Shown here: one piece after another, positions 2,150 to 63,840 of the stretch
Numbering within the stretch: the first letter of the stretch is position 1
How the letters are laid out: the number at the start of each line of letters is the position of its first letter
DNA from: an uncultured Poribacteria bacterium
GTDB lineage: Bacteria; Poribacteria; WGA-4E; WGA-3G
Length of the DNA: 64,000 nucleotides
Direction of reading: 5' to 3'
NCBI GenBank assembly: GCA_951812525.1
Contig: OX638316.1
Location: 4,904,608 to 4,968,607 of the forward strand
Notes under the pieces: generated by a model
Told to the model about the DNA's origin: nothing
Seen by the model: only the letters and a program-made list of their open reading frames with translations
Databases searched by the model: none
Made by a program: the position numbers and the translations under genes

Positions 2150-2345
2150 GTTTATATTTGTGAATATTTTCCACCCTTTTTTCCTCATCCAACCCGGTAG
2201 GCACGGTTTTGCGGCGTACTCGACCCGACGAATGCCACACGCGCATTCGGCGTTGATTCATGCGACCTGCATTCCAACCGTGCCGGATACGAGAAAAAGG
2301 TGTCAAACTCCATATATTCTTAAAACTAAATGCCCTTATATTGGA
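2150..2345 (+). repeat. REP/MITE-like element. An AT-rich 5' flank is followed by a GGTAGG-headed hairpin (2196-2286) whose loop carries a 65-nt insertion. It is homologous to 49866-50010.
   Basis: It aligns with 49866-50010 over the 5' flank (tttatatYtgtgaatatttt...aacccggtaggcacggttt) and the 3' flank (aaccgtgccgga...attcttaaaactRaatg.ccctata). The segment 2211-2275 is present only in this copy. Confidence 0.7.
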
Positions 2346-2522
2346 CTATGTGAAAATAGTTTGTTAATTGTCTGAATCGCGGGTGACGCAGATTTCGCGG
2401 ATTAGCAGGATTCAATGATTTTCAGGATTCGTTGGCTGCTGAAAGCCAGAATCGGAAAATGATGTGTAGTAGAGAAGATAGGTGCGGAATGAAAAGCTAA
2501 GCCAAATTGTGCTTTGCACATA

Positions 2523-3233
2523 TCATGTTACATGATAGTCCACGCCATACTGCACCAAGCCCAACCGTCGTGCAACACCTTGAGAAGCAACATTGTCCCA
2601 CGAAGTACTGTAGAGCGGAATAAGGTTCAGGGCACGGATCGCGAGTGCCCAAGCAGCGATAACCGATGATGCATATCCACGCCGCCGATAACCAGCCAGC
2701 GTTTCAACACCAGCTTCATGGGCGCGTGCTGAGACACGAACACTTCGACAAATTGACACCACCTGCGAATCCTCTATGATTGCTAAACAGAGGTGCGGAC
2801 TATTTAATTCCGGTCCTATGTCGGCTAAATCTCCCTTTAGAAGTCCTGCATCCTCACGTGATAGCCGGATAACATTCGTCGGTGGTGTAATGTGTTCAGA
2901 AAAGCGGTAGGCAGGACCAACCCCGACGCGGTCAATTGGTGCATGACTTTGAAGGATATCCTCAAATTGCCTATGGTACTTTGGAATCTTATGGGAATTC
3001 ATAGAGACCGGTTCAGCAGCGATTTCTTTCAGTTGTGCAACCACATTGTCGGGAAGGTCATGCCGGAATTTACATATTGAACCTTCGTTGGTGTATCCAA
3101 AGAAGAAACGAGGTGCTGGTTTCATACCATCCCAAGGCTCGTTGATATGTCGCAGGCTTCCATTCTCATCCTGTGTGAATAGCGCCTCAACCTGAATTTT
3201 CATGAGTTCAATATCGGTGTGATGGATATTCAC
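2523..3233 (-). CDS. GNAT family N-acetyltransferase
   Basis: The C-terminal acetyl-CoA binding region reads GVETLAGYRRRGYASSVIAAWA. It is a 236-aa ORF. Confidence 0.6.
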   Translation of the reverse strand: MNIHHTDIELMKIQVEALFTQDENGSLRHINEPWDGMKPAPRFFFGYTNEGSICKFRHDLPDNVVAQLKEIAAEPVSMNSHKIPKYHRQFEDILQSHAPIDRVGVGPAYRFSEHITPPTNVIRLSREDAGLLKGDLADIGPELNSPHLCLAIIEDSQVVSICRSVRVSARAHEAGVETLAGYRRRGYASSVIAAWALAIRALNLIPLYSTSWDNVASQGVARRLGLVQYGVDYHVT

Positions 3234-3316
3234 GTTCTATACTCGCTGTAACGGAGGGTGAATTTTCCTATTTATATTTCTGGCAGCCTTTTGTTCTTAC
3301 TCTATAGGCTTTACGG

Positions 3317-4522
3317 TTACCCATCTTTAAATTCACAGTAACTCTGATACCGAAACTCTGAGATGTCTCCTGTTTTCAGGGCAGGCTGCACCGCACAACC
3401 TGTCTCATGCGTATGCGTGCAGGCACCTTTCACGCAACGCTCTCGGAGTGAATTCATTTCTGGAAAATACCGGTCCATCAAGCGAGGATCGATGTCCGAA
3501 AAGTGTAACTCGCGAAGTCCCGGTGTGTCGGCGATAAAACCACCGAAATCTAAGTGGTACAGTTGGGTTGCCACGGTTGTGTGTCTTCCACCGCGTTTCG
3601 GATTTACTTCGTTTGTTTTCAACTTCAAACCGGGTTGAATGGCGTTCAAGAGCGAAGATTTACCCACGCCAGACAATCCAGATAGCACCGAAATCTTTCC
3701 TTTCATCCACGCTTTCAAATCCTCGATTCCTTCACCGGTCGTTGCACTCGTAAAAATTGTCCGATAACCGACTTTCTGGTAAACTGTGGCTATCGTACCC
3801 ACTTCGGATCGGTCTTCGAGCATGTCAATTTTATTGAAACAAACAAGTGGCTCAATCCCTGATGTTTCAGCGATAACGAGGAATTTGTCCAGCATTCGCT
3901 GCCAGATGGGAGGCTCTTTTACAGAAGAAACGATGATGAGTCCATCGAGATTTGGAATGAGAATTACCCTTTTAGACTGCGTTCCTCGCCGTTTATATTG
4001 ACTCTTACGCCGCATAATGGATGCAATAGTGCCATGTCTGTCATCAATTAGGTGAATTTTGACGCGATCCCCAACATAAACCTGCTGATTTTTGCTAAAG
4101 GCATCGCGTTTTCCCCGCAGCGAACATTGATACCGATCCGCGGCACATTGCACAACGTAAACACCATTGCTTGCCCGCATCACGATGCCCTCGGGAAGTC
4201 CGACCAATTTTTCGTTATCGAAGAGGTAACCTGTCCGTTTGAGAAGTTCCGCGTCCGGTATAATTCGGGCAGTTTTTATGGCACTGAGACGCCTGACTCG
4301 GTTTTTGACAAGCATTTTCTCTGATTTGAGGAGCAATGCGATAACGACGGGTTTGTCCTCGTCACTGCCAAGCGCATTCTCGGCATCTCGAATCGCTGGA
4401 TCCATACCAAGATAAACCCTACAATAGATGGGACGGTTCCTCCAATCAAAAACCGAGTAATCGCCTCCGAGAATTTTTTGTGCTTCTATTAAAGTTGTGC
4501 CTGCGTAAACGGACATTGCCAT
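3317..4522 (-). CDS. rsgA: Ribosome small-subunit-dependent GTPase A (RsgA/YjeQ) with an N-terminal extension of about 110 aa. The start is uncertain; alternative Met codons lie at 4315 and 4180.
   Basis: It has an OB-fold, the G-motifs GLSGVGKSSLLN, GRHTT and DTPG, and a C-terminal zinc finger C-x-C...H-x-H-E-x-G-C. Confidence 0.8.
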   Translation of the reverse strand: MAMSVYAGTTLIEAQKILGGDYSVFDWRNRPIYCRVYLGMDPAIRDAENALGSDEDKPVVIALLLKSEKMLVKNRVRRLSAIKTARIIPDAELLKRTGYLFDNEKLVGLPEGIVMRASNGVYVVQCAADRYQCSLRGKRDAFSKNQQVYVGDRVKIHLIDDRHGTIASIMRRKSQYKRRGTQSKRVILIPNLDGLIIVSSVKEPPIWQRMLDKFLVIAETSGIEPLVCFNKIDMLEDRSEVGTIATVYQKVGYRTIFTSATTGEGIEDLKAWMKGKISVLSGLSGVGKSSLLNAIQPGLKLKTNEVNPKRGGRHTTVATQLYHLDFGGFIADTPGLRELHFSDIDPRLMDRYFPEMNSLRERCVKGACTHTHETGCAVQPALKTGDISEFRYQSYCEFKDG

Positions 4523-4848
4523 AGGCTTCGATTACCTCTGTTTTGTCTCCGACGAATCGATACGAACTTTCGCGAATGATTCAAAGATATAGGCGTTAAG
4601 ATACGATAAGACATGAGAATCTTTCACCGACACATAATTTCGGATGCACTTTTAGAGGCATGGCGTAAAGGAATAATCCAGTAATTGACGGACGATGAAT
4701 CTCCCACTACGAACAGAGCTGCTTGTAGGAGTCCAATTTTTTCTTGACGTGTTTTATGAAAGTGATTATGCTTTTAGTAAGTGAGGAATTGATCGAATGC
4801 GGTAGAAGGATCCATCAAATCATTTTATTCAGGACAAGGAGAATACCG

Positions 4849-5928: not shown

Positions 5929-5940
5929 CCATTTTGGGTA

Positions 5941-9373: not shown

Positions 9374-9513
9374 ATCTCACCGAAGGGATGTGTGGTGAAA
9401 CGTTAGGTTTCACTGGGATTTCAGGGAGGTTCAAGCGTGCTAAGCTGCGAAGGGTTCTGTATTGAACAGGTCAATTTCTTGTGTCTCGTTCAACCCAACC
9501 TACGCGTCCAATT

Positions 9514-10848: not shown

Positions 10849-10958
10849 GGTAAAACCTACAAATAAATGGACATCTTTGTAGCATAAACTGTTAGTTTGT
10901 GCCTCTGTGAATGCTCATAGTGGCATTCGCACTCTTTAAGAATGTCCAATTAATTCTA
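10849..10958. repeat. Copy B of the 110-bp inverted-repeat pair (partner at 2035-2146)
   Basis: See copy A. Sequence outside the repeat diverges on both sides. Confidence 0.8.
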
Positions 10959-19249: not shown

Positions 19250-19345
19250 AGATGCTCTTCTGTAGGACGGATTTCCGAATCCCGACGTATGCTCGCTCTC
19301 CTGTAGGACGGATTTCCGAATCCCGACGTATGCTCGCTCTTCTGT
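19250..19345 (+). repeat. Tandem repeat, about 2.3 copies of a 41-bp unit GCTCGCTCTYCTGTAGGACGGATTTCCGAATCCCGACGTAT
   Basis: It can be read directly. Related copies occur at 37905-37950 on the minus strand and at 43738-43760. Confidence 0.8.
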
Positions 19346-19480
19346 TGGTGGTTGTCAGCGGTTGGCGATTGGCAGTTGGCAATTGGCTGGAAACCGCCTT
19401 GATATTCTCACTTAGATCGTTTACAATGATATAGACTATGACACCCACTTAATTTTAAAGCTTAATGGAGATGCCGAAAT

Positions 19481-23848: not shown

Positions 23849-26473
23849 ATGCGACCGCATCCAACTTTTTGGATCTGTTTAATCCTAATAAGTTTTTATT
23901 CTCTTCCTCTATTCGCGCAGGAAGCGACACCCGCTGCAAAACCAGCGACGACGGAAACACCCGCAAAAAAGAAAAAAGAGTTTGAAGACTTCTCAAAAGT
24001 TATTGAAGATAGTAAAAGTTACGAGGGCTTTTTCAAACTATATCAGAAAAAAGAGAACCTCTATTGCGAAATACAACCCTCACAAATGGACAAGCCATTT
24101 TTATGCATGATTAGCGTTGCCCGCGGTCTGGGGAGCGGATTTCTGCTCTCAGGGATGACTTTGGAAGAGTGGATGCTCGTATGGCGGCGTGTTGGCGACA
24201 ACGTGCATCTGGTGCGAAAAAATGTGCGTTTTCGTGCTAAGGAAGGGTCACCCATCGCAGAAGCAGTTGACTTAGGGCATAATGACTCCGTGTTGTTCTC
24301 TCTGAAGATTGAAAGTATCCATCCGCAACGGAAGAGCTTGTTGGTGAATATCTCTCCCGTTTTTATATCCGACCTGCCGCCGTTGGCACGCAGTATTGCC
24401 CGTGATGCCCGCTTTGACAAAACGCGCAGTACTTGGGGAACAATCAAAGCGTTTCCGAAGAACGTCGAATTAAAAGTTCAAGCAGTGTACGCATCAGAAA
24501 CATCTATGACAGCCATCCCGGACAGTCGCGGTATCCAGTTGACACTACACTACAGCCTCGCTAAACTTCCAGAAAACAATTATCGTCCTCGGTTGGCTGA
24601 CGATCGCGTTGGGCACTTTATGACGGCGGTAAAAGACTATTCGTCCAAAACCAGCGATGAACCCTTTATCCGCTATGTCAACCGGTGGCATCTGGAGAAA
24701 GCAGACAAAGATACTAAGCTTTCACCGCCGAAAGAACCCATTATCTTTTACATCGAGAAAACGGTACCACATCGGTATCGTCACTATGTCCGACAGGGCA
24801 TTCTGGAATGGAACAAGGCGTTTGAAAAAATAGGCTTTGCTGACGCGATTGAAGCGCGGATTCAGCAGGAGCACGAGGACTGGGACCCCGAGGATGCGCG
24901 TTATAACACGATTCGCTGGATTGTCGGTGCGGGTTTCGCTATTGGTCCATCCCGCGTAAATCCGTTGACGGGGCAGATCCTAGACGCTGATATCCTTATC
25001 GGTGAGAGTTGGATCCGATATTGGCAGCGAGAGTATATGACGTTTTTTGACGAAGTTGCGCGAGAGCGCGATCACCCGATGGATCATTCTTCACGGTTCC
25101 AATGTGATATGGCATCTGGATTGGCGCGTCAGATGGGTTTCATGGCGAGTGTCTTGCAGGCACGTGGCCTGACTGATGAAGACGGCGAACTACCAGAAGA
25201 GTTCATTGGGCAAGCACTCAAAACATTAACTATGCACGAAGTCGGACATACGTTGGGATTCCGGCACAACTTCAAAGCAAGTACAATATTTACCCTTGAC
25301 GACTTGAACAACAAAAGTGGCGAACCACTGATCGGCTCCGTCATGGAATACGATGCCGTGAATATTGCACCTGAAGGTCAGGAACAGGGAGATTACTACA
25401 CAAAGACAATCGGACCTTGGGATTACTGGGTGGTCGAATACGCCTATAAACCGATCGATGCCAGCAAACCGGAAGGTGAATTGGAAGCCTTGGGAAAAAT
25501 CGCTTCCCGTGTAGCAACATCAGACCTAACCTATGGTACAGATGAGGATGCTTCTTGGTATCGTTTCCGAGATTTAGATCCATTGGTAAATCGCTGGGAT
25601 CTCGGCGCTGACCCACTTGCCTTTGCCAAACAACGGCGCGAGATCGTTGTAGGACTCTGGGATAAGATTTCAGACAAGGTCACAAAAGACGGAATGGGCT
25701 ATCAGCGTGTCAGGCGGGCATTCGGAAACTTGCTTTATGAACACGCCTATACAATGTACCTTGCAAGTCGGTATATCGGTGGACAGTACCACCACCGCGA
25801 TCATCGTGGTGATGAAAATGCGCGTTTACCGTTTGTGCCGGTGCCAGCGGCAAAACAACGCGAAGCACTTCAATTCCTCAGAGAACATGCACTCTCGGAC
25901 AACGCCTTTGATTTTCCAGCTGACCTGCTCAACAGTTTGGCAATCACACGTTGGAGTGACTGGGGAAGAGCTAGTTGGAATTCCTCACGTTTCGATTATC
26001 CGGTGCATGATATCATTCTGCGCAATCAAACTCTCATTCTGGAACGACTGCTTTATCCGAATGTTCTGGCGCGTGTTCAGGACACAGAACTTAAGTTTGC
26101 TAAGGGTGAGGACGCATTCACAATGCCAGAACTCTTTTCAGGCATTACGGATGCGGTTTGGGTAGAACTCAAACAGGGTGCTGGTGAAAAACAGTGGTCG
26201 AACACGGATGCGTACATCTCCAGTTTCCGTCGCGGTCTGCAACGTGAACACTTGAAGCAGCTTATCAAACTGGTGCTGGAAGCCGATAGTGGTACCCCAG
26301 AGGATGCGAGATCGCTTGCACGACACCATCTTGGGATAATTAACAGTCGGATACAAAATGTGCTTCAGAACGCCAGAGGTAGGCTTGACGATTATAGCTT
26401 GGCACATCTCCAAGAATCACAGGTTCGAGTCGCGAAGGCTCTGGATGCCAATTTCCAAGTCGAGACGCGCTAA
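23849..26473 (+). CDS. Secreted zinc-dependent metalloprotease (DUF5117/DUF5118-type, HEXXH)
   Basis: It has a signal peptide and the active-site motif LTMHEVGHTLGFRHNF. It is 874 aa. Confidence 0.7.
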   Translation: MRPHPTFWICLILISFYSLPLFAQEATPAAKPATTETPAKKKKEFEDFSKVIEDSKSYEGFFKLYQKKENLYCEIQPSQMDKPFLCMISVARGLGSGFLLSGMTLEEWMLVWRRVGDNVHLVRKNVRFRAKEGSPIAEAVDLGHNDSVLFSLKIESIHPQRKSLLVNISPVFISDLPPLARSIARDARFDKTRSTWGTIKAFPKNVELKVQAVYASETSMTAIPDSRGIQLTLHYSLAKLPENNYRPRLADDRVGHFMTAVKDYSSKTSDEPFIRYVNRWHLEKADKDTKLSPPKEPIIFYIEKTVPHRYRHYVRQGILEWNKAFEKIGFADAIEARIQQEHEDWDPEDARYNTIRWIVGAGFAIGPSRVNPLTGQILDADILIGESWIRYWQREYMTFFDEVARERDHPMDHSSRFQCDMASGLARQMGFMASVLQARGLTDEDGELPEEFIGQALKTLTMHEVGHTLGFRHNFKASTIFTLDDLNNKSGEPLIGSVMEYDAVNIAPEGQEQGDYYTKTIGPWDYWVVEYAYKPIDASKPEGELEALGKIASRVATSDLTYGTDEDASWYRFRDLDPLVNRWDLGADPLAFAKQRREIVVGLWDKISDKVTKDGMGYQRVRRAFGNLLYEHAYTMYLASRYIGGQYHHRDHRGDENARLPFVPVPAAKQREALQFLREHALSDNAFDFPADLLNSLAITRWSDWGRASWNSSRFDYPVHDIILRNQTLILERLLYPNVLARVQDTELKFAKGEDAFTMPELFSGITDAVWVELKQGAGEKQWSNTDAYISSFRRGLQREHLKQLIKLVLEADSGTPEDARSLARHHLGIINSRIQNVLQNARGRLDDYSLAHLQESQVRVAKALDANFQVETR

Positions 26474-30512: not shown

Positions 30513-30537
30513 AGCGAGGTTAGGAAACCTCACCTAC
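30513..30537 (-). repeat. Instance of the REP-like hairpin family (GGTAGG head on the minus strand)
   Basis: The minus strand reads GGTAGGTGAGGTTTCCTAACCTCGC. Confidence 0.6.
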
Positions 30538-30558
30538 CGAGTAGAGAGCGTTAATTAA

Positions 30559-35472: not shown

Positions 35473-35502
35473 GAAAAACTGGCGAGGTTAAAACCTCGCC
35501 AG
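35473..35502 (-). terminator. Intrinsic terminator downstream of the ECF sigma gene. It is a REP-related hairpin.
   Basis: The minus strand carries the 11-bp stem CTGGCGAGGTT / AACCTCGCCAG followed by TTTTT. Confidence 0.55.
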
Positions 35503-35576
35503 CAAAATGAATTTATAGTGATGGCGGACCTACCCATCCGCCATCGATTGGTTTAGGCAAAGAAACCCGCGTAATT

Positions 35577-36170
35577 TTAGAAACTTGCGCGGTATGGTGC
35601 CAAAAACTTTCGGAGTTGCCGAATCGCAGCATTTTTACGGGAGGCAACGGTACCAATCGGACATTCGACAATTTCAGCGACCTCTTGATACGACAATCCC
35701 TGCAGTTCTGTTAGCTGAAACACTACTTGGTGTTCTTTCGACAGTTTATTGATCGCAGCTTGAATCGCTTCGTAAGTCTCTTTGGCAATGAGCAGTGCCT
35801 CTGGTGAATAGTCTGTATTTGCAATAGCGACAACGATTGGGTTAAAACATTCATCTTCATCTCCATAGTGTACATCCAGTGATTCCATCTTGGGTGTCCT
35901 TTGCTCTTTCGCCAACTGTTTCAAACAGAGATTTTTGGCGATGTGATAAAGAAATGTTCTGAATTTTGCGATTGGGCGGTACGTTGGTACGCAGCGCCAT
36001 AATCGTAGGAACGTTTCCTGGCAAAGATCTTCCGCAAGTGGTCGATTCTTAACAAATCGATAGATAAAGTTCAAAGTGTTTGTATAATGACGTTCGGTTA
36101 GGATTTGGAATGCGTCTCTGTTTCCATCCTTCACAGAGAGCATCAACTGCTCATCAGTCTGTGTCATGCT
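35577..36170 (-). CDS. ECF-subfamily RNA polymerase sigma-70 factor. The start was moved to the Met at 36170.
   Basis: Region 2 reads FQILTERH...LCQETFLRLW, and region 4 reads LSYQEVAEIVECPIGTVASR. Confidence 0.8.
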   Translation of the reverse strand, partial: SMTQTDEQLMLSVKDGNRDAFQILTERHYTNTLNFIYRFVKNRPLAEDLCQETFLRLWRCVPTYRPIAKFRTFLYHIAKNLCLKQLAKEQRTPKMESLDVHYGDEDECFNPIVVAIANTDYSPEALLIAKETYEAIQAAINKLSKEHQVVFQLTELQGLSYQEVAEIVECPIGTVASRKNAAIRQLRKFLAPYRASF

Positions 36171-36615
36171 TGTCTCCTCAAAGAGGAGCATTTCAAGCGA
36201 AGGCGCGTATCCCTCCTTTTGAATAGCGGAGGATGCCTGCTTGTTCACTCCTCGGTCTGTGCCTTCTCCATAATCGAGTCCTAATCCAACAACGGAACAC
36301 ACCGGTAGTTTTAGATACCTGGGCTCTCAAGGAAGTGTGATCTGCTAAATTGCAGCCTCGTTCACCTCCGCGGGTTCCGTTATCCCGGACGCTTCTGATA
36401 ATCGTCCAAGCGTGAGGCATAGCCTCCGTTAAACACAAAATGTTTTGATACATTATACAATCTATCCTCCATAGGTTAGTTATCAGTTAGGGGTAGTATT
36501 TGATGTTCCTTTTTTTGACTATAAAAAACTCTTAATGGTTTAATCCATACATTGAAAAAAAATCATTTAAAATTAAAAAAATAGTAGATTTTATAATTTC
36601 TTAGCGTCACGAATC

Positions 36616-36641
36616 GGCGAGGTTGGGAAACCTCGCCTACC
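36616..36641 (-). repeat. Instance of the REP-like hairpin family
   Basis: The minus strand reads GGTAGGCGAGGTTTCCCAACCTCGCC. Confidence 0.6.
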
Positions 36642-36697
36642 AAATTACAGTAGAAAGAGCGAAGTTAGAAACCTATCCTACCAGCAGAGGGATTTCC

Positions 36698-37834: not shown

Positions 37835-38171
37835 TGGGAAAGAGGGTTGTAAAGATTACAATTTTAACAGTTTAACATATTAGATGTCGGTTTTCAATTT
37901 CAGTTGATTAGTTGTCAGTTGTCGGGATTCGGAGATCCCTCCTACAGTGGAGTCAAGGGATGACTTTACTGTTTATACATATTTTTGGATGCACTTTATT
38001 GAGACATAGGGATTATACCTAACTAACAGTGTTTATGGATTATGCTTGAAATTTCAGCGAATTTCGCGTATAATTATCATAAATAGGCTAAAGCGAACTA
38101 TCTCAAACGGTGATGCAAGAAAAAGTGGCGAGGAACAAAGACCGCGCCTCATACGAAAGGTTTTTAACTAA

Positions 38172-43563: not shown

Positions 43564-43804
43564 GGTCAGTATCCTTCTTAACTAAGGTCTTCATTCATCA
43601 TTATACCATATTCTTTGGAATATCTGCCACATCTTTTGCAATGCACAAGATCATTTAGCCTTAGGTTATTGGTTATAAGTTGTTGGTTAATGGTGGTTGG
43701 CAATTGGCAGTTGGCGGAAGGAATAAATCGCGATCGGGAGATCGCTCCTACAGGAAGTCATTAGTACACAGTAGACTGTAGATAGAGATCGTTCCTACAG
43801 CAAC

Positions 43805-44371: not shown

Positions 44372-44643
44372 GTATATTTCCTTCCGGTTGTTTCTTTATG
44401 GATTAAATTTTTAGATAATATGTTGGGTTTCACTCATCCTTGGGTAATTTCAGGTTTCTTAATGAATTCAAAAGTCATTTCTCTGTGTGATTTTTTTACA
44501 ACTCCCGTTCAACCCAACCTACACGCTGAGTAAATTGTAGTATTAAACGAGCAAAATCTTCAAAAGAAACAAAAGGACACTTTGGCAAAATTGGATTATG
44601 CTTGATCCATAACGCCTTCTCTGCTAAAATGGGCAGATAATTC

Positions 44644-45687: not shown

Positions 45688-45753
45688 AAGAGGTTAACAA
45701 GGCGTCGATGCCTCAATCCGTAATCAAAATCTGAGGAGGGAAGGGGTAACAAT

Positions 45754-47250
45754 ATGGCAGAAACCAAAGAAACTGTATCAGGCGGAACACTTCCCGACTG
45801 GGAGGTCGATGATTTACCTGCACCGCCTCCGTATCAATTTGGAAAAGCATTTCGGAATATCTTAGGTCCTGGCATCATTGCGTTAGGTGGATCGATTGGA
45901 AGTGGTGAATGGTTGCTGGGTCCGGCGATTACCGCACAATACGGAGGTAGACTGCTCTGGATTGCGACAATCGCCATTCTGCTTCAGGTGATCCTGAATA
46001 CAGAGGCGATCCGCTATACACTTTACACCGGCGAACCGATGATGAGCGGTTACATGCGGTGTAAGCCGGGTGCACCTTTCTGGATGACTTTCTATTCAGG
46101 TATCAACTTTTTCGGGATCTGGCCGGGTTGGGCGATGACGGCTGCGACGGCACTAGCTGCGGCGTGGCTCGGGTATATGCCCCAGGATGCGGATGGCGGG
46201 ACGGTCCGTATATTCGCATATCTTATCTTTTTTAGCTGCTTAGGGATTGTGCTATTCGGTGGGAAGATTTACAACTCGCTTGAGAAAGTACAACTCTTTA
46301 TGGTGATTTGGATCATCAGCTACCTAGTCGTGATCGATCTGTTTATGGTGTCGCCGAAAGTGTGGTGGGCTGTTATCAAAGGCTTCTTTAGTTTCGGAGC
46401 ACTCCCGACCGCAGGCGCAGATGGGACGGTAAATTGGTTGTTGGTTGGAGCGTTCGCTGCATACGCAGGAAGTGGTGGCTTGGGCAATGTCGGAATTACC
46501 CATTACGTACGCGATAAAGGATGGGGCATGAGCAGTCTCGTCGGTGCAATTCCGTCCATGATTGGTGGACAGCACGTAACACTCTCACACTGGGGCAAAG
46601 TGTTTCGGATTACGCCAGAGAACCTCCAACGGTTCAAGGAATGGTGGAAATACGTCCGATTTGAACAGTATTATATTTGGATGATCGGGTGTTTCATCGG
46701 TATTGCGTTGCCCGCAATGCTGACCTTGGAGTTTGTGCCGCAAGGACAAGAGATGGAACAGTGGTCGGCAGCAGCAATCCAAGCGGATGGACTTGAGGAA
46801 AAAGGCGGTAGAAGTCTATGGTATCTCACACTGCTCTGCGGCTTCTGGGTGCTGTTTTCGACACAACTCGGTGGCGTAGATGGTGTGCCACGCGGTTTTA
46901 CCGATATTATTTGGACGGGAGTGAGGCGTGCGCGAAATTTGGGTGAAAATAGCGCAAAATGGATTTACTATCCAATACTCGCTGTCTACATTGTATGGGG
47001 GGTTATCGCGATGTATCTCGCCAAGCCGTTCTTTATGATCTTGGTATCGGCAACGATTGGCGGGTACCTACTTGTATTTTCGGCGTTACATACGCTTTAT
47101 GTAAACCGTAAGTTCTTACCTGCGGAGATACAAGCACCGTTGTGGAAACAGATCGGACTGGTGTTGTGTGCTGGGTATTATTCGATTTTCGGGACGATCA
47201 CTGTTTATCAAAAGGTGCTTGTGCCTTATGTATTCCCGATTTTTGGGTAG
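45754..47250 (+). CDS. Polytopic membrane transporter, distantly Nramp/MntH-like
   Basis: It is predicted to have about 11 TM segments. The N-terminal pattern GPGIIALGGSIGSGEWLLGPA...LLW...Q...E..RY.L.TG resembles the Nramp signature. Confidence 0.5.
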   Translation: MAETKETVSGGTLPDWEVDDLPAPPPYQFGKAFRNILGPGIIALGGSIGSGEWLLGPAITAQYGGRLLWIATIAILLQVILNTEAIRYTLYTGEPMMSGYMRCKPGAPFWMTFYSGINFFGIWPGWAMTAATALAAAWLGYMPQDADGGTVRIFAYLIFFSCLGIVLFGGKIYNSLEKVQLFMVIWIISYLVVIDLFMVSPKVWWAVIKGFFSFGALPTAGADGTVNWLLVGAFAAYAGSGGLGNVGITHYVRDKGWGMSSLVGAIPSMIGGQHVTLSHWGKVFRITPENLQRFKEWWKYVRFEQYYIWMIGCFIGIALPAMLTLEFVPQGQEMEQWSAAAIQADGLEEKGGRSLWYLTLLCGFWVLFSTQLGGVDGVPRGFTDIIWTGVRRARNLGENSAKWIYYPILAVYIVWGVIAMYLAKPFFMILVSATIGGYLLVFSALHTLYVNRKFLPAEIQAPLWKQIGLVLCAGYYSIFGTITVYQKVLVPYVFPIFG

Positions 47251-47300
47251 ATGGATAGGATAGAGATTTAGCAGAAACTAAACGGTTGCCAGAGACAACT

Positions 47301-47332
47301 GGCGAGGTTGAGAAACCTCGCCTACCTTTTTT
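47301..47332 (+). terminator. Intrinsic terminator after the transporter gene. It is also a REP-family hairpin.
   Basis: It reads GGCGAGGTTGAGAAACCTCGCC-TACC-TTTTTT. Confidence 0.65.
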
Positions 47333-47377
47333 AATGGAGAACGGGTGAGGTTAGATTAGGATACCCCACACCACAAA

Positions 47378-48895
47378 TTATGCCTCAAGGATTGCTTCAA
47401 CAAGGTCCTCTACGGAGGCTTCTTTCGCAACTACATCAACTTTCACACCGCATTCCGCTGCCGTCTTTTGTGTTGTGGGACCGATTACTGCGACTTTGAC
47501 ATCAGCGAGTAACATTGCAGGTGACTGTGTGGGGAACATCTCTAAGAAGTTGGTAACCGTTGAAGAACTAGTGAACGTGACGAAATCAATTCTGCCGTTC
47601 AAGAGGTCAGCTTCGATTTCACCTCGATTTTCGCTTGCCACCTTGACGGTATCGTAGAGGGGAATATCATCGACAAGTGCGCCTTTCTCACGCAAACCGT
47701 TCGGTAGATCGGCAGTGGCAATTTTGGCGCGCGGTAGAAGGACTTTCTTGCCATGTACATCCTCCATTTCAGCGGCGATGGCACTTCCGCGGGAGTGCGA
47801 CGGGACGAAATCAGGGTGGATACCGATGCGGTTTAGTGCTTCAACTGTTTTTGGACCAACTGCACAGATTTTGCTCATGCCGAACGCTCGTACATCCTTC
47901 CCGTTTTCTCGTAAGCGTTCATAGAAAATTTCTACGGCATTGACGCTCGTAAAAACAATCCAATCGTATTCGTTTGTGGCGTGTATATACGCGCTGTCCA
48001 CATCGATTGGTTGAATTTTTATAGTAGGGAATTGGATAACTTGGGCACCGTTGGCTTCCAAAAGGTCAGCGAATTCACTGGCTTGTGCGCGTGCGCGCGT
48101 AACAAGGATTCGCTTTCCAAAAAGTGACTTAGTGTCAAACCATCGGAGTTGCTGGCGTAGTCGATTAACCTCACCGACGACAATCACTGCGGGACTTTTC
48201 AGTTGGGATGCCTCCACCTTTTGGACAATATCTTCGAGTGTGCCTTGGACGACTTGCTGTTGTGGTGTCGTTCCGACGCGGACTAAACTAACAGGGGTCT
48301 GTGGATGTCTGCCGTGTGTCATCAGGCGTTCGGCGATTTGGCGGAGATGCGCAACCCCCATGTAGACGACAAGCGTATCTACTGCTGTAGCGAGACTCTC
48401 CCAATTGATGTTTGAATCCGGGCGCAACGCAGCGGAATGCCCCGTAACGAACGCTACTGATGAGGCGTAGTCGCGATGGGTGACTGGGATGCCTGCATAA
48501 GCAGATGCGGCAATCGCCGAAGTGATACCTGGAACTATCTCAAATGGAATGCCTGCTTCAGTGAGGGCAACTGCTTCTTCGCCACCTCTCCCAAAGATGT
48601 ACGGATCACCGCCTTTGAGACGAACGACGATTTTACCGGCTTTGGCATGCTCAATAAGCAGTTGATTGAGTTCAGTCTGGCGTGTTGTTCGGATTCTTGG
48701 GTCGGGCGCCTGGATTTTATCGGTGTGTGCGGGACAATGTTCGAGGAGTGCATCGTTGAGTAGCAGATCGTAGATGACAACATCGGCGCGTTGAAGGCAC
48801 TCTATCCCTTTAAGTGTGATAAGCTTTCGATCGCCGGGACCTGCACCTACAATGTAAACGATCCCGCCGCTCGGTTTGTTTGGAGATGCGTTCAT
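47378..48895 (-). CDS. cobA-hemD: Bifunctional uroporphyrinogen-III C-methyltransferase / uroporphyrinogen-III synthase (CobA-HemD fusion)
   Basis: The N-terminal part reads [18 protein letters not shown]..., and the C-terminal half is HemD-like. Confidence 0.85.
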
Positions 48896-48905
48896 CAGAA
48901 TTTAC

Positions 48906-49817
48906 CTATAATCTTAACAGTTCAGTTGCCCCACTACTTTGAAGTTTTTCGGCTACGATACTACCCAAGTGTTCTGCTGCGTCTGGCATTCCAGTGGCAG
49001 TCTCCACGATACGATGGATTCCCTCAGGATGGCACACAGCAGCGATAAGAGAAAGTTCACCATTAACATGCCAAGCATACGCCCCAATCGGTACTTGGCA
49101 TCCACCACCGAGCCTTTTCAATACCGTTCTCTCAGCAGTAACCTCAGCGACCGTCTCAGAATCGTTTAGCGGTGCAAGCAGCGTTTCGACAGTGCTATCT
49201 CCTTCCCGCACCTCAACCGCAAGCGCGCCCTGCCCAACAGCGGGGACCATGCGTTCGGTATCAAAATACTGTGTGATAATTTCCGGTTCAAGGAGGCGTT
49301 TGATGCCGGCTGCGGCGAGGATAATTCCGTCGAGGTCGGTTTCTTGAAGTTTGCGTAACCGTGTATCAATGTTCCCTCGGACATCAACGACTCGCAGATT
49401 CGGACGTATATGAAGGAGTTGCGCTTTTCGACGTGGACTTGTGGTACCAATCTTTGCACCACCGAGTAAATCTTCCAACGGAAAACCTGTAGCAGTGATA
49501 AGCACGTCACGTGGGTCTTCCCGCTCCAGAATAGCGGCAATGCAGAGTCCAACCGGCAATTCTGTCGGCAGATCCTTTAGGCTATGGACAGCGAGGTCGA
49601 TGTCGCCTGTTAAGAGTGCGTTTTCTATTTGTTTGGTAAAGACCCCCTTACCGAGTCCAACGAGCGAACGGTCTTGAATGGTGTCCCCAGTGGTTTTGAT
49701 AACTTTTAGGTGTACCTCAAGATATGGAAAATGGGATTCCAATCGACTCTTAACAAACTCCGCCTGCCAGAGCGCGAGTTGACTACCACGTGTGCCGATT
49801 GTGAGCGAGTTGTGCAT
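48906..49817 (-). CDS. hemC: Hydroxymethylbilane synthase (porphobilinogen deaminase)
   Basis: It reads LTIGTRGSQLALWQA...; the dipyrromethane cofactor cysteine region GGCQVPIG is present. Confidence 0.9.
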   Translation of the reverse strand: MHNSLTIGTRGSQLALWQAEFVKSRLESHFPYLEVHLKVIKTTGDTIQDRSLVGLGKGVFTKQIENALLTGDIDLAVHSLKDLPTELPVGLCIAAILEREDPRDVLITATGFPLEDLLGGAKIGTTSPRRKAQLLHIRPNLRVVDVRGNIDTRLRKLQETDLDGIILAAAGIKRLLEPEIITQYFDTERMVPAVGQGALAVEVREGDSTVETLLAPLNDSETVAEVTAERTVLKRLGGGCQVPIGAYAWHVNGELSLIAAVCHPEGIHRIVETATGMPDAAEHLGSIVAEKLQSSGATELLRL

Positions 49818-49865
49818 TAAAATTCCTGTGATTTAAAGGGGAGTATAGAGACTGCAGGGGCATTT

Positions 49866-50010
49866 AGTTTATATATTTACTTTATATCTGTGAATATTTT
49901 TCGTCCTTTTTACCCATCTAACCCGGTAGGCACGGTTTCCTAACCGTGCCGGAAACAAAAAAAAAGGCGTAAAACCTAATAAATTCTTAAAACTGAATGA
50001 CCCTATAGAG
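49866..50010 (+). repeat. REP/MITE-like element between hemA and hemC, homologous to 2150-2345. Its hairpin is 49926-49952.
   Basis: It reads GGTAGG-CACGGTT-TCCTAA-CCGTGCC-GG with conserved flanks. Confidence 0.7.
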
Positions 50011-50027
50011 ACTGAGATATAGGATTC

Positions 50028-51329
50028 CTACACTTCCGAATTATCATCGTTAACATCCAGTGCGAATAATTCCTGTAATGCTTCGACATATTGTGCGTGA
50101 TCAATACTACCATCGTTGACAGCACAGCGGAGATTCTGCATAGGATGGTGAAGCAGTTTTTTGACAATCGCCTGGGTCATGGAAGTAACGGCAGCTTCCT
50201 GCTGATCGGAGAGTGTTGCTTTGTAGAAGCATGCTTGCAATTCGGTGTCGGCTATCTGTTGAAACTGCTGATGGAGTGCCTTAATTGTAGGATTAACCTG
50301 AAAAGTTTGTAATTGGCTGTAGAACCCTTTGGCTTCTTCGGAGACGATCTGTTCTGCCCTGACTGCTTCGTGTTGCCTATCTTTGAGGTTGGAGGCGACA
50401 ACGGCTTCGAGATCGTCAATATTGTAGAGGAAAGCGTGGTCAATTTTACTCACGTCCGGATCAATGTCGCGTGGGACTGCGATGTCGATAAGGAACATGT
50501 ATCGATGCCTACGTTTCCGCATGATGTCAACGAGAGGCTTCCGTTTGATGAGGTAATCGGGGGCATTGGTAGAACTGATGACGATATCGGCATCAACGAG
50601 AAATCCGAGATCGCTATCATAAGGGTGTGGTGTTCCGTTAAACTTCTCGGCAATTGTGACAGCACGTTCATAAGTGCGATTTGCAACAATTACGTTAGCG
50701 GCACCATTGGCGACGAGATGTTTTGCGGTAAGTTCGCTCATTTCACCCGCGCCGATAATAGCGACAGTCTTTCCCTCAAGTGTATTGAAAATCTTTTTGG
50801 CGAGTTCAACGGCAGCGTAACTTATAGAGACAGCACCGGTAGTGATTGTCGTCTCGGAGCGGATGCGTTTGCCGACACTGAAAGCTTTGGCGAAAAGCCG
50901 ATTGAGAACAACCCCAACGCTCCCTGCTGAACGCGAAAGATCGTAAGCGGATTTGACTTGACCCAGTATTTGGGACTCACCGACCACCATAGAATCAAGA
51001 CTCGATGTTACTCTGAAGAGATGCTGGATCGTCTCCAAGTTACGATGAAGATAACACCACTTCTTGAGCGAATCCACACCAATCCGATGGTAGCGAGCGA
51101 GGAATTCGACCAACATTTTGGCAGCTGCGTCGGCATTCTGCACTGAATGTGCAAGTGCATAAACCTCTACCCGGTTACAGGTAGAGAGGACTACTGCCTC
51201 TTGAACCTGATCAGATTCATGCAAACGCTGGAGGAATTCAATAAGTTGTTCATCGGAAAACGCCAATTTTTCCCTAAATTCAATGGGAGCAACATGGTGA
51301 CTGGTTCCGACGGAGACAATCTGGTTCAT
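50028..51329 (-). CDS. hemA: Glutamyl-tRNA reductase
   Basis: It has the catalytic Cys region STCNRVEVY and the NADPH motif IIGAGEMSEL. Confidence 0.9.
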   Translation of the reverse strand: MNQIVSVGTSHHVAPIEFREKLAFSDEQLIEFLQRLHESDQVQEAVVLSTCNRVEVYALAHSVQNADAAAKMLVEFLARYHRIGVDSLKKWCYLHRNLETIQHLFRVTSSLDSMVVGESQILGQVKSAYDLSRSAGSVGVVLNRLFAKAFSVGKRIRSETTITTGAVSISYAAVELAKKIFNTLEGKTVAIIGAGEMSELTAKHLVANGAANVIVANRTYERAVTIAEKFNGTPHPYDSDLGFLVDADIVISSTNAPDYLIKRKPLVDIMRKRRHRYMFLIDIAVPRDIDPDVSKIDHAFLYNIDDLEAVVASNLKDRQHEAVRAEQIVSEEAKGFYSQLQTFQVNPTIKALHQQFQQIADTELQACFYKATLSDQQEAAVTSMTQAIVKKLLHHPMQNLRCAVNDGSIDHAQYVEALQELFALDVNDDNSEV

Positions 51330-59794: not shown

Positions 59795-61342
59795 ATGAGA
59801 TTTGATACAATAATTTCTGGCGGAAATATCGTCGATGGAACAGGTAAACAAGCACCGTATATTGCGGACATTGGCATCCAAGATGACCGCATTGCAGCTA
59901 TCGGTGACCTTGGGCAGGCAGAAACACTGGTTCGGATTTCTGCCGAGGGGCAGGTCGTCTGTCCGGGTTTCGTTGATGTGCATGTGCATTCTGAAATCTC
60001 GCTACTCGGTGGACGGGACCAGTTCGCTGCCGTCAGTCAAGGTGTGACGACGCATTTAGCGGCACCAGACGGTTTCGGATGGGCACCGTTATCGCCAGAG
60101 CAAGCACAGGAAATGTGGCACTACACCCAATTCGCATACGGAGACGCTGAAGTTCCGCTCAACTGGAAAACACCAGATGCATATCTGAGCATATTCGAGG
60201 GACGAATCCCTGCGAACCTCTATCCACAGGTGCCGCATTGCGCTGTCCGTCTCGGTGCTATGGGGTGGGACGCACGTCCAGCAACTACCGATGAACTCAA
60301 GGTTATGGAGCGCACGACACGTGAGTGGTTAGAAGCGGGTGCATGTTGTCTCTGCTTGGGGCTAGATTATCAACCCTCAGCGAATGCAGATTTGCGTGAG
60401 TTGGTCTATCTCTCAAAGATCGCTGCGAGTTACGATGCCATCTACGCAGCGCACGTCCGCTATCGCATCCTCGGTAGAAAACAGGCGTGGGAGGAGACAA
60501 TAGAGATTGCCCAAGGTGCTGAAATCCCCGTACATATCTCGCACGAACGCGTTGATGATGAAGCATCTGAAATTCTCGATCGCGTGGAGCGAGAAGATAT
60601 AGATTTGACGTTTGAATCTTATCTCTATCCTGCGGGTATGACCCACCTTGCAATGATGCTCCCGATGGAGTTTCAGAGCGGTGCGCCTGCTGACATGTTA
60701 GCAAATCTGGAAAACCCCGAAGTCCGGGAAAAATCGCTCGCATACCTACAGGGAGAGTTACGCCAAGGCAATCAAATCGTGGGGTACAACCGCTCTGGAA
60801 GGTTTATCGGGATGACACTCGCAGAAGCCGCAAAAAGTGAGGGTAAATCTAATGAAAACTTTGCCTTCGACCTCATTTGCGAAGAAGCGGCGATTGAAAC
60901 CTTTGTGATGCCGTGGGCTACACCTCCTGAAGAAAATGAACACATCTTAAATCGCACCGCAAGCCATCCGCGTATGATGATTGCGAGCGATGGTGTCTAC
61001 AACATTCCACATCCACACCCCCGAAGTTATGGGTGTTTCGTGCAGTATCTGGGTAAGTTCGTGCGTGAGCGTCAGTTAATTTCTCTGCCAGAAGCCATCT
61101 ACAAAATGAGCGGTTTCCCAGCGGAACGTTTCCGATTGTCCGATCGAGGGAGAATTAGCCGTGGGCTTGCCGCAGACATTGTCGTCTTCAACCCAGAGAC
61201 GGTTGCAGACCGCTCCACATGGTTCGATCCGGTACAATCTCCTGTCGGTGTAAACTGGGTGTTCGTTAATGGCGTTTCAGTTGTCGAAAATGGAAACGTG
61301 ACGGGACAGTTGCCCGGCAAAGTGCTACGTCAACAACGATAG
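59795..61342 (+). CDS. Amidohydrolase-family N-acyl-D-amino-acid deacylase (D-aminoacylase)-like
   Basis: It reads IISGGNIVDGTG...VCPGFVDVHVHSE, which is the metal-binding HxH. Confidence 0.75.
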   Translation: MRFDTIISGGNIVDGTGKQAPYIADIGIQDDRIAAIGDLGQAETLVRISAEGQVVCPGFVDVHVHSEISLLGGRDQFAAVSQGVTTHLAAPDGFGWAPLSPEQAQEMWHYTQFAYGDAEVPLNWKTPDAYLSIFEGRIPANLYPQVPHCAVRLGAMGWDARPATTDELKVMERTTREWLEAGACCLCLGLDYQPSANADLRELVYLSKIAASYDAIYAAHVRYRILGRKQAWEETIEIAQGAEIPVHISHERVDDEASEILDRVEREDIDLTFESYLYPAGMTHLAMMLPMEFQSGAPADMLANLENPEVREKSLAYLQGELRQGNQIVGYNRSGRFIGMTLAEAAKSEGKSNENFAFDLICEEAAIETFVMPWATPPEENEHILNRTASHPRMMIASDGVYNIPHPHPRSYGCFVQYLGKFVRERQLISLPEAIYKMSGFPAERFRLSDRGRISRGLAADIVVFNPETVADRSTWFDPVQSPVGVNWVFVNGVSVVENGNVTGQLPGKVLRQQR

Positions 61343-61366
61343 ATAGTGTAGTGTGGAGGGAAAACC

Positions 61367-62797
61367 GTGGATACATACGATTTGACAATCATCGGCGGCG
61401 GAAGCGCGGGGCTCGTGCTTGCCGTGGCGGGGGCAAAGTTAGGCAAAAAAACAGCACTCGTGGAAAAATATCGCATCGGTGGAGATTGCCTCTGGACGGG
61501 ATGTGTTCCGTCCAAAGCACTCCTGAAAGCGGCGAAGGTAGCGAATTATATTCAGAACGCAGAGAAATACGGCATCGCAGCTTCATCACCTATGTCAGAC
61601 TGGCAGCGGGTGATAGGGTATGTGGAAAGCACCCAACACGCGATAGAAGAGGAGCACGACAACCCTGAACGATTCCGCGAGATAGGCGTGGATGTCATCT
61701 TCGGAAACGGGCATTTTGAATCACCCAATACCTTCGTTGTGGAAGACACTGAAAGTGGAGAGACACGTACTCTTAAAAGCAAAAAATTCGTGATCAGCAC
61801 GGGTTCCCGTCCTATTGCGCCACCTATACCCGGATTGGAATCTTGTGGCTACCTGGATAGCGAGACTGTATGGGAATTAGAGGCGTTTCCCAATCGGATG
61901 CTCGTTGTCGGTGCTGGTCCAATCGGAGTTGAACTTGGACAGGCATTTCATCGTCTCGGTGCCGATGTGACAATAGCACAACGCAGCGGACAGATCTTGA
62001 CGAAAGAAGATGCCGATGTCTCTGAACAGATACTGGATTACCTACGCGCAGATGGTCTCACGATCCGACTTAACACAAACATTGCGCAGGTTACACAGGA
62101 CCAAGAAGGCGCAAAGGTGACATTCAATAGCAGTGAAAACGGAAACACTGAACAGACATTCGATAAGATTCTAATCGCTGCGGGGCGCGCACCGAATATC
62201 GATGGTTTAGAGCTTGAACAAATCGGGGTACAGGTTGGTAGACGTGGGATTGAAGTGAATAACAAACTTCAGACGAGCGTCAAAAATATCTACGCCGCGG
62301 GTGATGTTATCGGACACTACCTGTTCACGCATGTTGCAGCATTTCAAGCACAACTGCTCATCCGAAATCTCTTCTTTCCCTTCTCCAAAACGATTAACTA
62401 TGCTGTCGTTCCGTGGACTACCTTCTGTGATCCAGAGGTCGCTCGTTGCGGTCTGACAGAGGCAGAAGCACGCGAGAAGTATGGAGATGTTGATGTGTTT
62501 ACACTCGATCAAGGGGACGTTGACAGAGCGGTCGCGGAAGGCGAGACCCAAGGCTTCACAAAAGTTATCACGAGTCGATGGAACGGAAAAATATTAGGCG
62601 TGCACGTCGTGGGAACCAATGCGGGAGAGGTGATCCATGAGTACGTTCTGGCGATGCAGACCGGAATACCTCTTCGGAAATTGAGTGGTATGATTCACGT
62701 TTATCCGACATTTTCGAGCAGTACGTGGCGTGTGGCAGGGAAATGGTTTTCGGAGAGCACGATGATTCAGACGTTACGGAAACTAATTGGGAAGTGA
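61367..62797 (+). CDS. Class I pyridine nucleotide-disulfide FAD oxidoreductase (dihydrolipoamide-dehydrogenase / mercuric-reductase-like)
   Basis: It has the FAD motif LTIIGGGSAGL, the redox disulfide GGDCLWTGCVPSK and a C-terminal dimerisation His. Confidence 0.75.
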   Translation: MDTYDLTIIGGGSAGLVLAVAGAKLGKKTALVEKYRIGGDCLWTGCVPSKALLKAAKVANYIQNAEKYGIAASSPMSDWQRVIGYVESTQHAIEEEHDNPERFREIGVDVIFGNGHFESPNTFVVEDTESGETRTLKSKKFVISTGSRPIAPPIPGLESCGYLDSETVWELEAFPNRMLVVGAGPIGVELGQAFHRLGADVTIAQRSGQILTKEDADVSEQILDYLRADGLTIRLNTNIAQVTQDQEGAKVTFNSSENGNTEQTFDKILIAAGRAPNIDGLELEQIGVQVGRRGIEVNNKLQTSVKNIYAAGDVIGHYLFTHVAAFQAQLLIRNLFFPFSKTINYAVVPWTTFCDPEVARCGLTEAEAREKYGDVDVFTLDQGDVDRAVAEGETQGFTKVITSRWNGKILGVHVVGTNAGEVIHEYVLAMQTGIPLRKLSGMIHVYPTFSSSTWRVAGKWFSESTMIQTLRKLIGK

Positions 62798-62856
62798 AAC
62801 TCAGAAGCGTGACAAACTAACAGATTGCGGTACAAGCCCGCTTCATCGAACTCACG

Positions 62857-63558
62857 TTATACGTTTAGTATTACAGCCTTAACTATTTTGCCACTGTATT
62901 TATCAGGACTGGCGAACTCTCTCAGATTCGAATTAGCAATATTCTGATTGATCTCTGAAGAGGTTTTAGATTTTAATTCCAAACCTTCGTCCGGATCATA
63001 GTGGTAATCTTCCAATGCGAGTTCCAAGAGTTCATAAGCTACGAAGAACTCGCGAAACGCTTCCTCTAACGCTTGACGCGAAGCATGTTGTCTGAGCAAA
63101 GTGACCACCCGTGGACGCACGGTAAAGAGATCTTCAGCAATAAGTGTCCAGATAAGTTCGCGAAACTCCTCTGGTGATAACTCGGAGATTTTCTTGTTAG
63201 GCATTGGATCACTTGGTAGATAGCGACTGTTCAGTCGGCGTTGCTTCCGTTCTTCAAGTGTTGTTCTCCGATTAGCGAGTATATAGTCCCGCTGTCGTCT
63301 TAGTTTTTTGGCGAGTGGTGTGTTCGATTCTAAACCATCAAGCGGGTCTTCCTCGTATTTTTCAAACCAAAAGGCGAGGCTCTCATAACCACAGAAAAAT
63401 AAGCGGAACTCTACCTCTAATTCCTCTGTTTTCTCTGCTGAATCAGGGGTGCTAAGCAATGTGATAAGGCGTCCACGCACATCAAAAATGTCATCGTCAG
63501 CAATATACTGGAGCAATTCAGCGATTTCGTCGCAAGACATATTGGCAAGTTTTTTCAC
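62857..63558 (-). CDS. Hypothetical acidic protein composed of two homologous halves
   Basis: There is an internal duplication: EIAELLQYIADDDIFDVRGRLITLL...EFRLFF matches EFRELIWTLIAEDLFTVRPRVVTLL...AFREFF. Confidence 0.4.
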   Translation of the reverse strand: MKKLANMSCDEIAELLQYIADDDIFDVRGRLITLLSTPDSAEKTEELEVEFRLFFCGYESLAFWFEKYEEDPLDGLESNTPLAKKLRRQRDYILANRRTTLEERKQRRLNSRYLPSDPMPNKKISELSPEEFRELIWTLIAEDLFTVRPRVVTLLRQHASRQALEEAFREFFVAYELLELALEDYHYDPDEGLELKSKTSSEINQNIANSNLREFASPDKYSGKIVKAVILNV

Positions 63559-63576
63559 GATTTCTCCGTTACGGTT

Positions 63577-63840
63577 GGAAATTTTAAATGTCTGCTTATT
63601 TTTATTAGGACTTACGCACTTCCCCGGTAGGTGCGGTTTCCTAACCGCACCGATTGCGTCATGTGGAAATTTTAAATGTCTGCTTGTTTTTATTAGGACT
63701 TACGCACTTCCCCGGTAGGTGCGGTTTCCTAACCGCACCGATTGCGTCATGTGGAAATTTTAAATGTCTGCTTATTTTTATTGGGACTTACGCACTTCCC
63801 CGGTAGGTGCGGTTTCCTAACCGCACCGATTGCGTCATGA
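63577..63840 (+). repeat. Three tandem direct copies of an 88-bp unit, each containing a GGTAGG-headed REP-like hairpin (CCCCGGTAGGTGCGGTTTCCTAACCGCACCG). It sits 19 bp upstream of the start of the 62857-63558 gene.
   Basis: Copies begin at 63577, 63665 and 63753 and differ by 1-3 substitutions. An inverted fragment of the unit (TGCGTAAGTCC) follows at 63861. Confidence 0.85.

Follow-up and report, generated by a model that had tools for sequence, protein, structure and literature searches.

Dispersed GTAG-tagged hairpins of Candidatus Poribacteria as probable REP elements tied to RAYT transposases

The genome of an uncultured Poribacteria bacterium (contig OX638316.1 of the assembly GCA_951812525.1) contains a family of short dispersed hairpins headed by the sequence GGTAGG. 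The family was analysed in a stretch of 64,000 nucleotides of this contig (positions 4,904,608 to 4,968,607), hereafter the window, and in related sequences. The hairpins are very probably GTAG-tagged repetitive extragenic palindromic (REP) elements of Candidatus Poribacteria, tied to the REP-associated tyrosine transposases (RAYT). This assignment is supported because RAYT genes in related Poribacteria contigs are flanked by the same hairpins. The GTAG REP are defined by an unpaired terminal GTAG placed beside a palindrome of 6-13 bp (Di Nocera et al. 2013, PMC3733652). Such an organisation had been proposed in an initial annotation of the window, and the tag, the palindrome, the extragenic placement, both orientations, the doublets and the clusters are all observed.

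RAYT-like open reading frames (ORF) stand beside hairpins in four of at least 120 metagenome stretches carrying the element (L213, L177, L197 and L169; stretches other than the window are designated by L numbers). Two of these ORF lie on Poribacteria-type contigs, at 249-722(-) in L213 and 3681-4154(+) in L177. They score 116.8 and 116.4 bits, respectively, against the NCBIfam model NF047646 'REP-associated tyrosine transposase' (cut-off 80), match Pfam Y1_Tnp (PF01797) and remain under the cut-off of the IS200 transposase model (46-50 bits vs 55). Their HUH, WQ and YxxxNPV motifs align with those of E. coli RayT, and the catalytic motifs of the Poribacteria RAYT genes are intact. A search with the L213 protein returned 193 homologue clusters, and all the named ones among the 120 listed belong to Candidatus Poribacteria. 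The clusters sit on chromosomes of 5-6.8 Mb from metagenome-assembled genomes (MAG). The E. coli RayT, used in a protein-database search, retrieved solely Enterobacteriaceae among the 120 matches listed.

A covariance model of the hairpin (R1, built from 136 distinct copies) was applied to seven loci of this RAYT clade (L177, L213, L238/239, L241, L242, L243 and L244). In all seven, the gene has family hairpins on either side at a distance of no more than about 100 nt, and these often form arrays of 3-15. A search for a RAYT gene flanked by the elements was the check that the initial annotation had proposed. The order in L242 is a hairpin(+) at 2406-2438, the RAYT gene at 2501-2977 and a hairpin(-) at 2978-3010. 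In L238, headless CGAGG hairpins in inverted orientation abut the start and stop codons of the RAYT gene and have the form GCTGGCGAGGTT...AACCTCGCCAGC, like the window hairpin 35479-35502. The upstream hairpins of L213, read in frame, give GRFGFLTEP.

A second Poribacteria RAYT clade (P0234, L240; 55-58% identical) is flanked by a different GTAG repeat, GTAGGAGCGAGCTGTGCTCGCGAT. Its copies in L240 are arranged as five 60-nt units in tandem before the gene (3640-3870) and as inverted copies after it (4530-4560, 4800-4825). The sequence GTAGGAGCGAGC is the repeat of this second clade. The repeat GTAGGAGCGAGCTGTGCTCGCGAT, which presumably resembles the REP of Pseudomonas, was not found in the window. 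A separate repeat for each RAYT clade is the pattern expected of a RAYT with its own cognate REP. In L241, a TnpB-type gene (2711-3829, OrfB_IS605 and a Cas12f1-like TNB domain) is the immediate upstream neighbour of the RAYT gene 4001-4465, within an extensive array of hairpins.

In the window, the pattern GGTAGG-N5-TTTCYYAA-N5-CC, scanned with up to two mismatches and a background taken from shuffles, gave eight matches vs 0.08 expected. Seven are clean copies of the form GGTAGG-N3-GGTT-TCYY-AACC-N3'-CC. The eighth, at 25483(-), was rejected as a chance match that lies inside an ORF and folds unlike the family. With the model R1, the seven clean copies reach 37-54 bits (E 1e-8 to 1e-13), and 2192-2234 (the 5' half of a long-loop copy), 36654-36686(-) and 35481-35500 are recovered in addition; a candidate extra copy at about 47340-47367 receives no support. 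A dispersed family of GGTAGG-headed hairpins, as first annotated, is therefore real, with seven clean copies, the long-loop copy 2196-2286 and a headless relative. The annotated positions mostly hold, the copy given as 49926-49952 being placed at 49925-49950. The window contains 8-10 copies, every one intergenic and, if this density is typical, a genome of 5-6 Mb would contain several hundred. Rfam returned no RNA family (whole window at gathering thresholds; 900-2600 at E up to 1), and the window has no tRNA or tmRNA genes. The 4-nt loop and the lack of an ARAGORN match led to the rejection of a tRNA-like or anticodon-arm interpretation. Nor are the tandem arrays CRISPR arrays, since the entire unit is repeated, 'spacer' included.

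The elements are not confined to the window contig. A scan of one genome per bacterial or archaeal species found at least 115 genome stretches carrying them (L001-L115, 905 kb), and all those listed are Candidatus Poribacteria MAG from dozens of assemblies; the loci L040 and L037, for instance, come from OX638351.1 and OZ244821.1. The window and these loci together (968 kb) contain 159-161 copies and have several other repeat families in common. The region 45753-51329 of the window is collinear with L108 at 67-72% nucleotide identity. The at least 120 further metagenome stretches include sponge metagenomes, and many come from the contig sets MKWU, LXNI and LXNJ, with Poribacteria-type flanks. 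With regard to placement, 158 of 161 copies are outside ORF of at least 110 aa, which occupy about 80% of the sequence. Relative to their length, convergent spacers contain somewhat more copies than expected and divergent spacers fewer. Neighbours within 300 nt form 13 direct pairs and 10 inverted pairs with the heads outside, and none with the tags inside. Tandem arrays are seen at 63576-63839 of the window as well as in L080, L177, L241 and L243.

Folded as single-stranded DNA, the element forms a 9-bp stem (GG-NNN-GGTT / AACC-NNN-CC) with a 4-nt TCYY loop and the 5' GGTA unpaired. The loop had been annotated with 8 nt, and it is shorter because the flanking TT and AA pair. The fold energy is about -11 kcal/mol in four of the five folded copies (z -3.8 to -6.6, as DNA). 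The copy at 30513 folds weaker (-5.7 kcal/mol, z -2.3) and has two wobble pairs, where a single G·T had been described. The GGTA tag is unpaired in all folds of the clean copies. Over the 968 kb, the GTAG-plus-hairpin combination occurs 318 times vs 41-114 for scrambled tetramer heads. The head was included in the search pattern, so that its invariance in the collected set is no independent evidence; the variants seen are GTAGA and the headless form.

The stems remain complementary when the copies are aligned, with 96.6% pairing across the 136 distinct copies, and the stem variants CACGG/CCGTG, TGCGG/CCGCA, CGAGG/CCTCG and TGAGG/CCTCG annotated in the window are genuine. In the same set, double (compensatory) changes number 20, 36 and 24 at the three central stem pairs. 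The covariation score of 0.229 is above all 500 shuffles (0.116 +/- 0.007), and slid registers reach at most 0.073. A perfect variable stem (5/5) is present in 130 of the 159-161 copies of the 968 kb. The central versions TGC, TTC, CGA, CAC, TGA, AGC and AGA each pair with their own complement. Counted over the window and L001-L115, the stem sub-families are TGCGG/CCGCA (63), TTCGG/CCGAA (41), CGAGG/CCTCG (20), CACGG/CCGTG (3) and rarer others. The double changes correspond to a few amplified sub-families rather than to many independent compensatory events. Each lineage that spread retained a perfect stem, and the hairpin matters. The covariation first proposed is upheld to this extent, and not as a record of many independent events. 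Covariation of the stem does not distinguish DNA-level from RNA-level selection.

It is improbable that the mobile unit is a longer composite resembling a miniature inverted-repeat transposable element, with inverted ends TATAGTGAAT...ATCTACTATA and a DDE-type transposase, in which the hairpin would be an internal module or a preferred target. The hairpin is central to at least five different longer units, among them several distinct units of 100-190 nt, often with the motif CCATAGGYGTCAATTTAG next to it. This mix of the hairpin with other motifs resembles the mosaic organisation of the enterobacterial bacterial interspersed mosaic elements (BIME). The right-arm motif ...AATAATTTCTTAAAAC of the unit 2148-2340 recurs in L027, L100, L092, L159, L165 and L171. 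A specific short insert, TTGCGGCGTAC...ATGCGAYCTGCATTCC, occupies the identical loop position in a long-loop sub-family (L137, L177, L185, L017, L203 and window 2196-2286). The window member folds with a 9-bp outer stem, and its loop begins with TTGCGGCGTAC, ends with ATGCGACCTGCATTCC and includes a nested dispersed repeat. The inner part of the insert recurs in L085, L021, L082 and L012. The insert, at 2210-2274 in the window, takes further insertions at its centre, in the window the 30-nt dispersed repeat CGACGAATGCCACACGCGCATTCGGCG.

The hem operon provides a filled and an empty site at an orthologous position, which favours the REP reading. The operon is encoded on the minus strand and comprises a ccsA-like gene, hemA (50028-51329), hemC (48906-49817) and cobA/hemD, with one copy between hemA and hemC, as first annotated. 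The hemA-hemC spacer has 210 nt in the window, with a composite unit, and about 25 nt without any element in the syntenic L108. The copy at 49925 is an insertion, since the orthologous spacer of L108 is empty. The 11-nt direct repeat TATAGAGACTG, at 49844-49854 and 50004-50014, brackets the composite unit, a point in favour of the composite alternative; it could represent a duplicated target site or belong to the ends of the unit. At the convergent spacer following cobA/hemD, the position of the copy at 47301 is taken in L108 by another GTAG-headed hairpin, GTAGGCACATTCCGTGTGCC. Against the composite alternative, the hairpin is the sole part common to all unit types, bare hairpins and doublets without arms are common, and the RAYT genes are flanked by bare hairpins. 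The clustering of 1301 ORF of the hairpin loci revealed no recurrent neighbouring transposase, of the DDE type or other, and yielded the usual Poribacteria paralogues (sigma-factor fusions, sulfatases, TPR and WD40). The regions between opposite-orientation copies 0.3-3 kb apart contain ordinary genes and no transposase.

A chiefly RNA-level element (a terminator, an mRNA stabiliser or a protein-binding site) under transcript selection, with incidental spread, is highly unlikely. On the tag strand, G.T wobbles are more numerous than A.C mismatches (33 to 12), counts that are non-independent because wobbles are common to related copies. This excess indicates that the hairpin of one strand matters, which is compatible with single-stranded DNA equally as with RNA. 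The copies are mostly in same-direction or convergent spacers, but they are also found in divergent spacers and in long tandem arrays. In same-direction spacers, the tag strand is sense in 55 cases and antisense in 38, an orientation that is near random relative to the genes (p ~0.1, normal approximation). The initial annotation regarded several copies as intrinsic terminators, and this applies to two hairpins. A T run follows the headless hairpin 35478-35503(-), which ranks first among the terminator-like sites, and also, after a gap of 4 nt, the hairpin 47301-47322(+). Read on the + strand, the latter is followed by TACCTTTTTT and is placed after the gene 45754-47250. The other six window copies, like most members of the family, lack a T run, and the family as a whole does not consist of intrinsic terminators, the T-run form in the window being limited to 47301 and the headless hairpin. 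The orthologous operon without the hemA-hemC copy and the tight clustering of copies around RAYT genes also argue against an RNA element. RNA-level roles of the copies are secondary at best. Individual copies might have secondary effects on transcripts, such as termination after 45754-47250 and an mRNA hairpin between hemA and hemC.

Chance similarity or local duplication in the window contig, which would fit the three copies of the local tandem triplication, is refuted by the seven copies found vs 0.08 expected and by the occurrence of the motif in at least 115 genome and at least 120 metagenome stretches elsewhere.

As REP elements, the hairpins would fold from single-stranded DNA. One or a few genes located elsewhere in the genome would encode a HUH/Y1 RAYT that binds the tag and the hairpin shape, and this enzyme, by cutting and rejoining, would spread and maintain the copies. 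RAYT binding and cleavage of single-stranded REP are described in the E. coli TnpA-REP work (PMC3479197, PMC8266576). By analogy, the Poribacteria RAYT probably binds and cleaves its REP as single-stranded DNA, and the RAYT is the most likely mover of the copies, as judged from RAYT/TnpA-REP and IS200/IS605 enzymes. Some points weigh against the REP-RAYT assignment. Transposition or cleavage by any Poribacteria member is a prediction from those relatives. The hairpin orientation around RAYT varies: the hairpins are inverted in L213, L238 and L242, whereas L177 and L244 have all of them on a single strand. Many copies are inside longer composite units with inverted ends of their own, and part of the spread may be that of larger composite units. 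Finally, no RAYT was found in the window, in agreement with the initial annotation, or in L001-L115 (HUH...YxxxNP regular expression and phmmer with E. coli RayT, all ORF); fewer than one is expected by estimate, so that this result is uninformative.

Table 1. Hairpin copies and associated units in the window.
Feature	Position	Strand	Details
Long-loop copy	2196..2286	+	GGTAGGCACGGTT...AACCGTGCC, ~65-nt loop, 3' part AACCGTGCCGG; stem CACGG/CCGTG as in 49925; read directly
Composite (mosaic) unit around the 2196 copy	2148..2340	+	Direct-repeat families D10, D13, D14; full-length homology to 49878-50007
REP copy, stem TGAGG/CCTCG, two wobble pairs	30513..30538	-	42.7 bits; then type A right arm AATTCTAAAATCTAYCATA
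Headless relative CTGGCGAGGTTTTAACCTCGCCAG, then T run	35479..35502 (35478-35503 as terminator-like site)	-	14 bits, E 0.05, partial model match
REP copy, stem CGAGG/CCTCG, loop TCCC	36616..36641	-	43.1 bits
Decayed copy GGTAGGATAGGTTTCTAACTTCGCT	36654..36686	-	11 bits, E 0.4; folding lost
REP copy, stem CGAGG/CCTCG, convergent spacer	47301..47326	-	37.1 bits
REP copy, stem CACGG/CCGTG, between hemA and hemC	49925..49950	+	48.5 bits
Composite unit with the 49925 copy	49878..50007	+	Bracketed by the 11-nt direct repeat TATAGAGACTG
Three tandem 88-nt units, one copy each, stem TGCGG/CCGCA	63576..63839	+	54.4 bits per copy
Copies within the 88-nt array	63626-63651, 63714-63739, 63802-63827	+	

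The headless hairpin stands after the sigma-factor gene 35577-36302(-). The decayed copy is placed 41 nt upstream of the 36616 copy and shares its orientation. The array at 63576-63839 is of the unit type AGGACTTACGCA...TGCGTAAGTCCT, which is also present in L008, L051, L076 and L105.

The window contains other small repeats. A second family of GTAG-headed hairpins, GTAGCATAAACTGTTAGTTTGTGC, is identical at 2093-2116(-) and 10879-10902(+), and its relatives (GTAGCACAAAC...GTTTGTG) are found in several Poribacteria loci. A third GTAG-type hairpin, GTAGGACGGATTTCCGAATCCCGAC, forms a 41-nt tandem repeated 2.2 times at 19254-19345(+) and is also present at 37925-37945(-); similar units are dispersed in L015, L082, L049, L001 and L085. 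At 44419-44522(-), GTAGGTTGGGTTGAACGG is followed by about 80 variable nt and then by GAGTGAAACCCAAC. The head recurs at 9492-9503(-), and the same ends enclose about 80 nt also in L004, L043, L137 and L231. This feature is either a REP of the long-loop type or a small structured RNA, without an Rfam match. The region 1780-2340 is an ORF-free dense cluster of small repeats, composed of type A arms (ATCTACCATAA / TTATGGTAGAT), two short G+C hairpins, a GTAGCATAAAC hairpin and the long-loop REP; its part 1883-2046 matches L017 and L105 at 76-86%. Short TTGG-rich repeats (GTTGGCAATTGGC, GGTTGTTGGTTGTTGG) adjoin REP clusters at 19339-19387 and 43660-43722 and in L240 (3518-3560).

The Poribacteria family shares most features of the GTAG REP surveyed by Di Nocera et al. 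(PMC3733652), which include the E. coli REP/BIME and the Pseudomonas REP/REPIN (REP doublets). The unpaired GTAG, the palindrome, the complementary stem sub-families and the frequent G.T pairs are alike, as is the extragenic location, mostly in same-direction or convergent spacers. Singles, head-outside dimers, tandem clusters and mosaics with short motifs occur in both, as do several REP families per genome and a RAYT flanked by its cognate repeat. On the other hand, that survey does not include Candidatus Poribacteria in its list of phyla. The Poribacteria repeats also have a longer head, GGTAGG, and their loop-proximal core GGTTTCCYAACC does not change over many species, variation being limited to three stem positions. 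Direct pairs, which the survey calls rare, are as common as inverted ones in Poribacteria (13 to 10), and tail-to-tail pairs are absent from the sample. Similarly to the REPIN-RAYT system (Bertels and Rainey 2011, PMC3116915), Poribacteria have inverted doublets whose hairpins are separated by 19-45 nt and carry their tags on the outer sides, as in GGTAGGTTCGG...CCGAACC-20 nt-GATGCGGTTAGGAAACCGCATCTA, and a RAYT flanked by the repeat. In contrast to that system, the Poribacteria sample consists mostly of singlets or tandem copies, and the halves of a doublet often come from different stem sub-families. The IS200/IS605 elements and their miniature derivatives, the palindrome-associated transposable elements (PATEs), also combine a Y1 HUH enzyme (PF01797) with DNA hairpins, and a TnpB-type gene is present in L241. 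Unlike them, the Poribacteria enzymes pass the RAYT model (116 bits, cut-off 80) and fail the IS200 model (46-50, cut-off 55), and the repeats are 26-nt units with no distinct left and right ends. No paper on REP or RAYT in Poribacteria was found in the literature.

Hairpins of this type extend beyond Poribacteria. About 35 of the at least 120 metagenome stretches have a high G+C content (0.55-0.72). Their head and core are those of the Poribacteria element, their stems are different (ACGGG, GTGGG, ACAGG, CCGGG), and most copies form perfect doublets with the heads outside and a spacing of 9-12 nt. High-G+C stretches that are not Poribacteria-like (L118, L156, L160, L161, L193, L234, L236 and others) carry GGTAGGACGGGTTTCCTAACCCGTCC as perfect inverted doublets at this spacing. 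A viral contig collection gave a single match, GGTAGGGTGGGTTTCCTAACCCACC, in L237 at 377-401(-), on an 18-kb high-G+C contig with a 1161-aa ORF. The RAYT of L197 (G+C 0.58) and L169 (0.47) score 182 and 123 bits, respectively, are 21-30% identical to the Poribacteria enzymes and have genes flanked by hairpins of the form GTAGG-N3-GGTTTCCYAACC-N3'-CC. The search pattern selected for a GGTTTCCYAACC-type core, which affects the apparent breadth. A tentative and rather doubtful proposal is that the core of the hairpin is a recognition module of ancient origin, travelling together with very divergent RAYT across phyla, or that a conserved host factor, and not the transposase, maintains it. If so, only the three stem positions would be free to define lineage-specific sub-families. 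The breadth of the core beyond Poribacteria is the one aspect that exceeds a routine new REP family.

The carriers of REP-RAYT systems gain a candidate phylum of uncultivated sponge symbionts. Both components are present in it, with at least two RAYT clades and a separate repeat accompanying each of them. The general picture of REP biology is unchanged, and the finding is of modest interest as an example of a known system in a new host lineage. In Poribacteria genomes, the repeats account for many small tandem arrays and long intergenic spacers. They are likely breakpoints in MAG assembly and possible markers for the typing of Poribacteria strains. The head and loop, constant over many species and recurring beside very different RAYT elsewhere, offer a data set on which parts of a REP are read by the enzyme.

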